Origin: a virus
Taxonomy: Duplodnaviria; Heunggongvirae; Uroviricota; Caudoviricetes
Length of the DNA stretch: 4,468 nt
IMG/VR virus record: IMGVR_UViG_2711768074_000001
Reading direction: 5' to 3' (one strand)
Part shown: positions 1,530 through 4,468 of the stretch, in pieces
Layout of the letters: the number at the start of each line of letters is the position of its first letter
Position numbering within the stretch: the stretch's first letter is position 1
Position numbers and translations under genes: made by a program
The notes under the pieces: model-generated
The model's database searches: none
The model's input: only the letters and a program-made list of their open reading frames with translations
Told to the model about the DNA's origin: nothing

Positions 1530-4001
1530 ATGAGTAAAGTCTTTATTTGCGCTGCTATTCCTGATGAACAGGCCATAAAAGAAGATAGCGCTGTTGCGGT
1601 GGCCACTGCCATTGAAGCTGGTGATGAGCGTCGCGCACGCGCAAAATTTCATTGGCAATTTCTGGAGCAATTCCCTGCAGCTCAGGACTGCGCTTATAAA
1701 TTTATTGTCTGTGAGGATAAACCCGGCATACCCCGCCCTGCCCTCGATTCCTGGGATGCTGAATATATGCAGGAAAACCGCTGGGATGAGGAGTCTGCTT
1801 CCTTTGTCCCGGTTGAGACTGAATCCGATCCGATGAACGTCACTTTTGACAAGCTGGCCCCTGAAGTACAGAACGCTGTCATGGTTAAGTTCGACACATG
1901 TGAAAACATCACCGTTGATATGGTTATTAGCGCACAGGAATTGTTGCAGGAAGACATGGCAACATTCGACGGACATATCGTTGAAGCGTTGATGAAAATG
2001 CCAGAAGTTAACGCCATGTATCCGGAGCTTAAGCTGCATGCCATCGGGTGGGTTAAGCATAAATGTAAGCCTGGTGCCAAATGGCCCGAAATTCAGGCAG
2101 AGATGCGCATCTGGAAAAAACGTCGCGAAGGTGAACGCAAGGAAACCGGAAAATACACGTCTGTTGTTGATCTCGCCCGCGCCAGAGTCAATCAACAGCA
2201 CACTGAAAATTCAACAGGAAAAATCAGCCTGGTCATTGCTGCCATTCATCGCGAATACAAGCAGACATGGAAAACACTGGATGACGAACTGGCCTACGCT
2301 CTCTGGCCTGGTGATGTGGATGCCGGAAACATTGACGGCAGCATCCATCGCTGGGCAAAAAATGAAGTTATCGACAACGACCGCGAAGACTGGAAGCGTA
2401 TCTCGACATCAATGCGCAAACAGCCTGATGCCCTTCGCTACGACCGCCAGACTATTTTTGGCCTTGTCCGTGAACGTCCGATCGACATTCACAAAGATCC
2501 CGTAGCACTGAACAAATATATCTGCGAATACCTGACGACAAAGGGCGTGTTTGAGAATGAAGAAACAGACCTGGGCACTGTTGATGTTCTCCAGTCATCA
2601 GAAACACAAACTGATGCAGTGGAAACTGAGGTATCTGATATCCCAAAAAATGAAACCGCGCCGGAAGCTGAACCATCTGTAGAGCGTGAGGGGCCGTTCT
2701 ACTTCCTCTTCACCGACAAGGATGGCGAAAAATACGGTCGCGCAAACAAACTTTCTGGTCTGGATAAGGCGCTGTCTGCTGGGGCTACTGAAATCACGAA
2801 AGAAGAATATTTCGCCCGCAAAAACGGTACATACTCAGGTTCACAACAAAATACTGGTGCATCTGACACGACCGCACAACCAGGGCCGGTAAAAGTTACC
2901 GCTGACGAAGTAAACAAAATTATGCAGGCAGCCAATATCAGCCAGCCTGACGCCGATAAGTTACTTGCTGTATCGCGTGGTGAATTTGTTGAGGGGATTA
3001 GCGCCCCTAATGATCCGAAATGGGTCAAGGGGATCCAGACTCGCGATTCTGTGAACCAGAACCAGCATGAATCGGAACGGAACTACCAAAAAGCGGAACA
3101 AAACAGCCCAAATGCGTTACAAAACGAGCCAGAAACGAAACAACCTGAACCAGTAGTGCAACAGGAACCGGAAAAGATCTGCACCGCCTGCGGTCAGAGC
3201 GGTGGCGGCAACTGCCCTGATTGTGGTGCGGTGATGGGTGACGCAACATACCAGGAAATATTCGATGGAGAGAATCAGCCTGAAGTTCAGGAAAATGATC
3301 CGGAGGAAATGGAAGGCACTGCGCATCAGCACAAGGAGAACACTGGCGGCAATCAGCATCATGCCAGCGATAGTGAAACTGGCGAGGCGTCAGATCCCTT
3401 AATTAAGGCGAACGGTCATCATAATCTCACATCCACCAGCAGAGCGGGGATTCATCTGATGATCGACCTTGAAACCATGGGAAAAAATCCCGATGCCCCG
3501 ATTATCTCAATAGGTGCAATATTTTTCGATCCGCAAACCGGAGATATGGGACCGGAATTTAGTAAGACTATCGATCTGGAAACTGCTGGCGGAGTCATTG
3601 ATCGGGACACCATTAAATGGTGGCTTAAACAATCACGCGAAGCGCAATCTGCCATTATGGCCGATGAAATCCCGTTAGATGATGCACTGTTACAATTGCG
3701 GGAATTTATCGACGAAAACTCCGGTGAATTTTTTGTTCATGTCTGGGGAAATGGAGCCAACTTCGACAACACGATTTTGCGCCGTTCATACGAACGGCAG
3801 GGGATCCCCTGCCCGTGGCGTTACTACAACGATCGCGATGTACGCACAATCGTTGAGCTGGGGAAAGCCATAGACTTCGATGCCAGAACGGCTATTCCAT
3901 TCGAAGGTGAGCGCCATAATGCACTTGATGACGCCCGTTACCAGGCAAAATACGTTTCAGCTATCTGGCAAAAACTGATCCCGAGTCAGGCTGATTTTTA
4001 A
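1530..4001 (+). CDS. Large prophage exonuclease (823 aa): long N-terminal region of unknown function, Q/E-rich linkers, Cys4 zinc-ribbon-like motif, and C-terminal DEDDh (DnaQ-like) 3'-5' exonuclease domain; possibly of the family annotated as exodeoxyribonuclease VIII (RecE)-like in enterobacterial prophages
   Basis: Single 2.47 kb ORF with SD TGAGG (1516-1520) 9 nt before ATG 1530. The C-terminal ~180 aa carry the three DEDDh motifs in canonical order: D646-x-E648 (MIDLETMG), D746 (GNGANFD), H796-x4-D801 (HNALDDARY). CxxC-x7-CxxC at residues 551-565. The central stretch ADKLLAVSRGEFVEGISAPNDPKWVKGIQTRD resembles what I recall of the non-catalytic part of Rac RecE (unverified). All antisense and alternative-frame ORFs inside it are treated as spurious. 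Confidence 0.9.
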   Translation: MSKVFICAAIPDEQAIKEDSAVAVATAIEAGDERRARAKFHWQFLEQFPAAQDCAYKFIVCEDKPGIPRPALDSWDAEYMQENRWDEESASFVPVETESDPMNVTFDKLAPEVQNAVMVKFDTCENITVDMVISAQELLQEDMATFDGHIVEALMKMPEVNAMYPELKLHAIGWVKHKCKPGAKWPEIQAEMRIWKKRREGERKETGKYTSVVDLARARVNQQHTENSTGKISLVIAAIHREYKQTWKTLDDELAYALWPGDVDAGNIDGSIHRWAKNEVIDNDREDWKRISTSMRKQPDALRYDRQTIFGLVRERPIDIHKDPVALNKYICEYLTTKGVFENEETDLGTVDVLQSSETQTDAVETEVSDIPKNETAPEAEPSVEREGPFYFLFTDKDGEKYGRANKLSGLDKALSAGATEITKEEYFARKNGTYSGSQQNTGASDTTAQPGPVKVTADEVNKIMQAANISQPDADKLLAVSRGEFVEGISAPNDPKWVKGIQTRDSVNQNQHESERNYQKAEQNSPNALQNEPETKQPEPVVQQEPEKICTACGQSGGGNCPDCGAVMGDATYQEIFDGENQPEVQENDPEEMEGTAHQHKENTGGNQHHASDSETGEASDPLIKANGHHNLTSTSRAGIHLMIDLETMGKNPDAPIISIGAIFFDPQTGDMGPEFSKTIDLETAGGVIDRDTIKWWLKQSREAQSAIMADEIPLDDALLQLREFIDENSGEFFVHVWGNGANFDNTILRRSYERQGIPCPWRYYNDRDVRTIVELGKAIDFDARTAIPFEGERHNALDDARYQAKYVSAIWQKLIPSQADF
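3447..4001 (+). other. DEDDh 3'-5' exonuclease domain (C-terminal domain of the 823-aa protein)
   Basis: Exo I DLET (codons at 3465-3473), Exo II NGANFD (3750-3767), Exo III HNALDD (3915-3932), spaced as in DnaQ-like exonucleases. Domain boundaries are approximate. Confidence 0.75.
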
Positions 4002-4016
4002 TGTTCAACCCTAATT

Positions 4017-4043
4017 GCCGCTAACCGTATATAGTTAGCGGCG
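4017..4043. repeat. Perfect 9-bp inverted repeat GCCGCTAAC-N9-GTTAGCGGC in the exonuclease/xis-like intergenic region (possible operator or RNA hairpin; not a canonical intrinsic terminator)
   Basis: 4017-4025 is the exact reverse complement of 4035-4043. No U-tract follows (GGTTATGAG), so it is not a typical rho-independent terminator. Confidence 0.5.
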
Positions 4044-4059
4044 GTTATGAGATATAGCT

Positions 4060-4263
4060 ATGAGCAGCTTATTTTTAACCGAAGATGAATTGCTAATATT
4101 AACGGGCTGCAAATATGCAAGCCACCAGCGAAAATGGTTAATGGAAAACGGGCTTCCGTTCTATACCAATCGTAGTGGCAAACCGATTGTCAGCCGGGAG
4201 CTATTTACCTGCAATAAAACTTTACCACCACGCGAGGTAGAGCCGAATTTTGGTGCGATCTGA
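4060..4263 (+). CDS. DUF4224-like small protein (67 aa), excisionase-like by position directly upstream of the integrase
   Basis: N-terminus MSSLFLTEDELLILTG...WLMENGLPF...GKPIVSRELF fits the pattern I recall for DUF4224 proteins found next to prophage integrases. The stop TGA (4261-4263) overlaps the integrase ATG (4263-4265). The SD is weak. Confidence 0.7.
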   Translation: MSSLFLTEDELLILTGCKYASHQRKWLMENGLPFYTNRSGKPIVSRELFTCNKTLPPREVEPNFGAI

Positions 4264-4457
4264 TGGGAAGACGAAGGAAAAATCCTGAACACGAAAAATT
4301 ACCTCCAAATGTATACCCAAATAAATATAGTTATGTATGGAAACCAACATCCAGAGAATCTGTAACACTAACCGCCGGTAATGACTCCAACTTATTGATA
4401 GTGTTTTATGTTCAGATAATGCCCGATGACTTTGTCATGCAGCTCCACCGATTTTGA
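4263..4457 (+). pseudogene. int: Phage tyrosine integrase, N-terminal fragment only; interrupted by IS1 after codon 38 (native part 4263-4376, then 26 IS1-encoded codons to a stop)
   Basis: MGRRRKNPEHEKLPPNVY... resembles the arm-binding N-terminus of lambda-family integrases (lambda Int begins MGRRRSHERRDLPPNLY, from memory). From 4377 the reading frame is inside the IS1 terminal sequence and terminates at TGA 4455-4457, whereas a full integrase is about 350-400 aa. Confidence 0.8.
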
Positions 4458-4468
4458 GAACGACAGCG
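4377..4468 (-). mobile_element. IS1 insertion sequence, terminal 92 bp (IRR end, element in inverted orientation, continues past the window edge)
   Basis: 4377-4468 (GGTAATGACTCCAACTTATTGATAGTGTTTTATGTTCAGATAATGCCCGATGACTTTGTCATGCAGCTCCACCGATTTTGAGAACGACAGCG) is the reverse complement of the IS1 right end as I remember it, including the ~23-bp terminal inverted repeat. Needs BLASTN confirmation. Confidence 0.9.
4392..4468 (-). CDS. insB: IS1 transposase InsB (InsAB'), C-terminal 24 codons (3' end of the gene; 5' part lies beyond the window)
   Basis: Minus-strand translation of 4466..4392 gives ...LSFSKSVELHDKVIGHYLNIKHYQ*, with the stop TAA at 4394-4392, matching the InsB C-terminus inside the IS1 right end. 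Confidence 0.85.
   Translation of the reverse strand, partial: LSFSKSVELHDKVIGHYLNIKHYQ

Follow-up and report, generated by a model that had tools for sequence, protein, structure and literature searches.

An IS1 insertion after codon 38 probably inactivates the integrase gene of an Escherichia coli lambdoid prophage

Can a prophage whose integrase gene runs into an insertion sequence after only 38 codons still make an integrase of its own and leave the chromosome by site-specific excision? This question is raised by the right edge of a 4,468-nucleotide stretch of DNA (the window), which is the whole of contig CYGG01000159.1 in draft assembly GCA_001284325.1. A sequence-only reading of the window had proposed that the native int frame enters IS1 at position 4377 after 38 codons and stops at a TGA that belongs to IS1. 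We compared both sides of this proposed junction with public sequences. On the native side, positions 4200-4376 match the xis-int regions of many E. coli chromosomes with 100% identity. Each of these matches ends exactly at position 4376, which bears out the proposed point of entry. Beyond this position, intact int alleles continue with ATCAAGG (Ile39-Lys40; ATCAAGGATGG) and encode IKDGLAALW after codon 38, whereas the window continues with GGTAATG (GGTAATGAC). Since the two continuations differ from the first base, the boundary is unambiguous.

The native side of the boundary ends in a 5' remnant of int (positions 4263-4376, plus strand), in which the ATG at 4263 through codon 38 (GCC, 4374-4376) encodes MGRRRKNPEHEKLPPNVYPNKYSYVWKPTSRESVTLTA. 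The DNA of this remnant is 100% identical to that of intact alleles, and its N-terminus aligns with residues 1-37 of lambda Int, which identifies the remnant as a portion of the N-terminal arm-binding region in a tyrosine recombinase of the lambda-Int type. The open reading frame list shows that this frame continues through 26 IS1-derived codons to a TGA inside IS1 at 4455-4457, exactly where the stop had been predicted, producing a 64-codon fusion ORF (4263-4457, plus strand). No Pfam domain was matched in the 64-aa fusion ORF, no such product is on record among recorded genes, and contig CYGG01000159.1 carries no gene call at 4263-4457. All coordinates given in the sequence-only reading are right to the base.

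Comparison of positions 4377-4468 with the IS1A and IS1B copies of complete E. coli genomes (9330 records) revealed 92 identical positions out of 92 (E = 6e-40). The match with IS1A of K-12 MG1655 (NC_000913 19796-20563) starts at element nucleotide 1, and in the K-12 annotation a distance of 15 bases separates this matching end of IS1A from the stop codon of insB. The window thus closes with the terminal 92 bases of IS1 at its insB-stop (IRR) end (4377-4468, minus strand), and the earlier identification of the terminal sequence as IS1 holds from the terminal nucleotide onward. The 23-bp terminal inverted repeat, GGTAATGACTCCAACTTATTGAT (4377-4399), is identical to the IS1A end, has the GGTRATG start at the exact element end, and agrees at 18 of 23 positions with the reverse complement of the opposite IS1A end. 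Within the same 92 bases, the minus strand of 4392-4468 holds the 3' end of insB, namely its last 24 codons and a TAA stop (4392-4394 in plus-strand coordinates), and its translation, LSFSKSVELHDKVIGHYLNIKHYQ followed by the stop, is identical to the last 24 residues of K-12 InsB1. Since the IS1 transposase genes are on the minus strand, they are convergent with xis and int. The resemblance of positions 4377-4468 to IS1 is not due to chance.

A complete IS1 is 768 bp long and has a second inverted repeat; its transposase genes are insA and insB, and InsAB' is produced by frameshift. In the window, insB is represented by its last 24 codons only, and the contig ends before insA and the frameshift site are reached. 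The window agrees with IS1A and IS1B of K-12 (IS1 family) in its 23-bp terminal repeat and in the C-terminus of InsB. With 92 of 768 bases visible here, the sub-type may be IS1A, IS1B or another, and the 92 bases could come from a truncated IS1 instead of a full copy.

A junction that is known from a single contig might also arise during assembly, as a chimeric join of int and IS1 reads from a genome in which int is in reality intact. The window is indeed a short contig of a draft short-read assembly, and its junction is seen in no other genome: no place in 5426 complete E. coli genomes covers both junction sides, and no exact junction match was found in GTDB species representatives, IMG/VR or JGI metagenomes. 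However, a unique junction is expected for a recent strain-specific transposition, and assemblers normally break at repeats and seldom invent junctions. Moreover, IS1 starts here at its precise first terminal nucleotide with no shared bases at the joint, which a random misjoin would rarely achieve. A join that begins at the exact nucleotide 1 of IS1 is instead a signature of transposition, and we regard the probability of an assembly artefact as close to negligible.

The position of the contig end is itself accounted for by IS1. Complete E. coli genomes hold a median of 10 IS1 matches each, and the contig ends 92 bases into the element because the short-read assembler halted at this multi-copy sequence. 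The sequence-only reading had suspected such a repeat-induced assembly boundary, and with the window now recognized as an entire contig, a repeat-caused end at IS1 is well supported. The left end of the contig falls inside a DUF1391 gene. Since some segments of the window recur in E. coli genomes, with a median of 2 and a maximum of 10 matching places per genome, this end is probably another repeat-caused break, here at prophage repeats. An Escherichia/Shigella background had also been suggested, and this agrees with the record of the contig's 823-aa exonuclease as CTZ98602.1/WP_053904817.1 from Escherichia coli and with a best DNA match of 98.5% to E. coli prophages. A Shigella origin was considered, since IS1 is present and complete E. 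coli genomes lack the junction, and was rejected because the contig's protein is recorded as Escherichia coli.

What the interruption separates from the first 38 codons can be read from intact alleles. In twelve related E. coli loci, the int ORF opens with these 38 residues. Most of these ORFs encode 341 aa, two others encode 346 and 321 aa, and that of the closest relative encodes 360 aa. Pfam comparison of the 360-aa Int located Phage_int_SAM_3 at residues 62-117, Phage_int_M at residues 68-154 and Phage_integrase at residues 183-317. The core-binding domain and the catalytic domain (PF00589, with the active-site Tyr), which span residues 62-317 in intact alleles, are absent from the window ORF. 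Since all recognized core-binding and catalytic domains lie downstream of residue 38, the gene is predicted to be inactivated, and by its domain content the int of the window is a pseudogene fragment and no functional member of the lambda-Int-type tyrosine recombinases.

The family to which this fragment belongs is well represented. A BLASTP comparison of the intact protein with lambda Int produced a whole-length alignment with 23% identity (E = 2e-18) and the common N-terminal pattern MGRRR..LPPN.Y, and the solved structures that match Int are lambda integrase entries only. Both results agree with the earlier description of a lambda-Int-like N-terminus. In the arm-binding motif, residues 1-20 align with residues 1-19 of lambda Int; the N-domain of lambda Int comprises approximately 64 residues, and 38 residues remain here. 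Thus, this Int and lambda Int (PDB 1z1b, 5j0n) have the arm-binding motif and whole-length homology in common, although their sequences are distant. A much closer counterpart is the integrase of lambdoid prophages associated with serU and mtfA (341/360 aa, for example WP_000533622.1), with which the window is 100% identical in codons 1-38 and in the upstream xis DNA, and with which it has the same upstream gene order, the difference being that IS1 cuts the gene here after codon 38. This integrase is labeled "integrase for prophage CP-933U" in Shigella flexneri and "tyrosine-type recombinase/integrase" in E. coli. It is carried by 1155 of 5426 complete E. coli genomes, and in 1096 of these 1155 at least 80% of the gene's length is present without a break. 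IMG/VR holds 397 relatives of int, and all 80 loci that were kept have a full-length int; likewise, a homology search with the C-terminal part of Int yielded full-length cluster representatives only.

Immediately upstream of int lies an intact xis-like gene (4060-4263, plus strand) whose 67-aa product matches DUF4224 (PF13986, E = 1.7e-15, 57.1 bits against a cut-off of 22). Its TGA stop codon overlaps the int ATG by one base (TGATG), and the same 67-aa protein is found upstream of int in ten E. coli chromosomes. We consider this DUF4224 protein a putative excisionase. An xis gene directly upstream of int and overlapping it is a feature of phage lambda as well, but the xis gene here encodes a DUF4224 protein and not lambda Xis, and in relatives the attachment site is at a tRNA-Ser gene and not at the attB site of lambda.

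Gene calls and Pfam comparisons place a ydfA-like DUF1391 fragment with its 5' end missing (1-115), ydfB (117-245), ydfC (275-493), dicB (1061-1249) and ydfD (DUF1482; 1246-1437) in the left part of the window. The DicF antisense sRNA is encoded on the plus strand at 835-886, where Rfam RF00039 is matched over its full length (1-52/52) with 72.5 bits. Since DicF lies between ydfC and dicB, the window appears to hold a complete dicBF-type operon of a Qin-like prophage; the Qin prophage of K-12 carries the same dicF-dicB-ydfD-ydfE module. The operon is followed by the gene for the 823-aa exonuclease (1530-4001, plus strand), an intact ORF with YdfE_N and YdfE_C domains and a C-terminal Rv2179c-like DEDD 3'-5' exonuclease domain (residues 642-813, E = 1.4e-66). 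This gene content identifies the window as the leftward early region of a lambdoid prophage of the Qin/CP-933 type. The sequence-only reading had supposed that "recombination genes" of the prophage are retained by the host. This part of it is not upheld: the sole nuclease of the window is of the YdfE 3'-5' exonuclease type, and no RecE/RecT or Exo/Bet pair was found in the 4,468 nucleotides. An identification of the 823-aa protein as RecE was likewise rejected, as its Pfam matches are to YdfE_N, YdfE_C and the Rv2179c-like 3'-5' exonuclease instead. Exonuc_VIII (PF06630) replaces the YdfE domains only in a different, related allele (L012). The exact 823-aa allele comes from one contig common to two samples and has two UniRef entries, from E. 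coli.

In relatives, int is followed by tRNA-Ser (serU) and mtfA, one record labeling the tRNA gene as tRNA-Ser-CGA. The closest relative is the prophage of strain DCE7, which is 98.5% identical to the window overall and 100% identical from approximately 2600 to 4376. In DCE7, int is the last gene of a lambdoid prophage that looks full and has genes for replication, lysis, terminase and portal proteins; for the strain of the window, the comparison covers 4.4 kb of the early region. ON470583.1 (L096; vB_EcoS-689R5, partial genome) was considered as proof of an active phage with this int and was rejected, since host genes mtfA and tRNA-Asn lie inside the record. Given that it has mtfA, tRNA-Ser and tRNA-Asn, this record appears to be a prophage region with chromosomal flanks and not a virion genome.

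Given these comparisons, we consider it highly probable that IS1 transposed between codons 38 and 39 of int, that this ended the prophage's own production of Int, that site-specific excision would not occur unless Int were supplied in trans, and that the multi-copy IS1 then ended the contig. IS1 would have entered the 5' part of int in a lambdoid prophage of an E. coli strain, the early region of which would run ydfA-ydfB-ydfC-dicF-dicB-ydfD-exonuclease-xis-int and the relatives of which are located at serU next to mtfA. Ribosomes that start at the int ATG would then read into IS1 and stop after 26 foreign codons. Because the 64-aa product is devoid of the core-binding and catalytic domains, the prophage would make no integrase of its own. 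In lambda-type phages, Int is needed for both integration and excision; unless it receives a matching Int in trans, this prophage should thus have lost the ability to excise site-specifically, and it is probably locked in a non-excisable state.

IS1 usually makes 9-bp target duplications (range 8-9 bp), and the predicted IS1 target site, CTAACCGCC, occupies positions 4368-4376, in agreement with the suggestion that a target of this sequence ends at 4376. A simple insertion would be predicted to have duplicated this site on the far side of the element. One IS1 junction is carried by the window, and the far end of IS1, the duplication and the remaining 303-322 int codons would lie past its edge. 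A simple insertion with duplication would read ...GGCAGCATCACC + CTAACCGCC (or TAACCGCC) + ATCAAGGATGGTTTAGC..., and the far contig end would then read ...AAGTTGGCAGCATCACC, followed by CTAACCGCC (or TAACCGCC) and by ATCAAGGATGGTTTAGCTGC...

It is also possible, though rather unlikely, that the junction is real and yet not one side of a simple insertion. IS1 is known to promote adjacent deletions, and such a deletion, or an inversion between IS1 copies, might have removed or relocated the rest of int together with attR and left unrelated DNA on the far side of the element. The window shows nothing of the other junction, and patterns consisting of an IS1 end, a spacer of 7-10 or 0-30 nt and int codon 39 onward had zero matches in genome representatives, IMG/VR and metagenomes, collections that probably do not include this strain. 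Other decay routes of the same int exist as well, as seen in the O111:H8 remnants and the exonuclease-int fusions described below. Against such a rearrangement, IS1 transposition most often yields a simple insertion, and here the break is at the exact IS terminus with the upstream sequence intact. Since int is inactivated under a simple insertion and under a rearrangement alike, the main conclusion is unchanged by the choice between them.

Loss of the prophage's own integrase would immobilize it only if no substitute were available. A second prophage or prophage remnant might supply the same Int in trans, or translation might restart at Met61 and give a partly active protein. In complete E. 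coli genomes, this int matches up to 3 places per genome, and the xis gene of the window is intact. If the 9-bp duplication is present, the frame past IS1 opens behind a TAA contributed by IS1 and has Met61 as its earliest start codon, giving an ORF of 281 or 300 aa that would retain the core-binding and catalytic domains. Proteins with exactly these 281- and 300-aa Met61 sequences (P0121-P0124) are present in a public protein collection. The 281-aa form, carried by 199 contigs, bears the name "integrase for prophage CP-933U" in Shigella flexneri 2a 301 (AAN43587.2) and 2457T (AAP17412.1), and such ORFs are annotated in some E. coli as well. Judging from these records, N-terminally shortened versions of this int do recur. 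The median copy number of this int is nevertheless one per genome, and a Met61 protein would be without the arm-binding domain, which is required for arm-dependent recombination by a lambda-type Int, both integrative and excisive. We therefore consider it distinctly unlikely that the element has escaped immobilization by either route, and we retain the reading that IS1 has probably locked the prophage in place.

Two more elaborate histories are highly improbable in our view. In one, selection would have favored the IS1 insertion as a "grounding" of the prophage, the early region of which (DicF sRNA, DicB, YdfD and the 823-aa exonuclease) would be useful to the host; in the other, an arm-less Met61 Int would be expressed and would have been retained to serve the host, for example in arm-independent recombination.

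Integrase loss with a predicted loss of excision has been described for the lambdoid prophages Sp3, Sp11 and Sp12 of O157 Sakai, in which int is disrupted; they are predicted to be non-excisable and are not among the nine prophages with detected circular forms (PMC2669165). The event proposed here is of the same kind, although the insertion site and the strain differ. Indeed, insertions that inactivate prophage int genes are well documented and form an ordinary decay route in E. coli and Shigella. The components found here are all known, namely IS1, a serU-type lambdoid integrase, a DUF4224 xis and the dicBF module, and this particular insertion appears from the sequence comparisons to be strain-specific and not of a new kind. 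Another disrupted int is intQ of the K-12 Qin prophage. For annotation, the int of this contig is best called a pseudogene interrupted by IS1; this call flags the prophage of this strain as probably non-excisable and explains the position of the contig end, and it has little significance beyond annotation.

The same int is shortened by a different route in other strains. In O111:H8 (NZ_CP077519.1, H124) and other E. coli, int nucleotides 265-1083 alone remain and adjoin the exonuclease gene, and the recorded proteins include exonuclease-int fusions of 637 and 795 aa (P0125, P0129, P0133). These remnants and fusions represent a deletion-based mode of decay of this int.

Some variation was also observed among the longer forms of int. 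The main forms are those of 360 aa and 341 aa (L014:24264-25346 versus L006:10204-11229), with matched spans of 1083 and 1070 bases, respectively. The 341-aa form ends in ...PRKYSK, and the int of AMSHJX01, which reads as this form, is flagged "frameshifted" by RefSeq. In the BLASTP alignment, the HELR motif of lambda Int, which contains Arg311 of the catalytic set, is aligned to HDLK in this family (residues 285-288 of the L014 Int). Given this alignment, the conserved catalytic Arg may be replaced by Lys in this Int family.

Finally, the window and the DCE7 prophage have 65 differences between them, and these are unevenly placed, with 29 at positions 1401-1800 and 8 at positions 2001-2200. 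Judged by sequence, this clustering is a mosaic pattern typical of lambdoid recombination.
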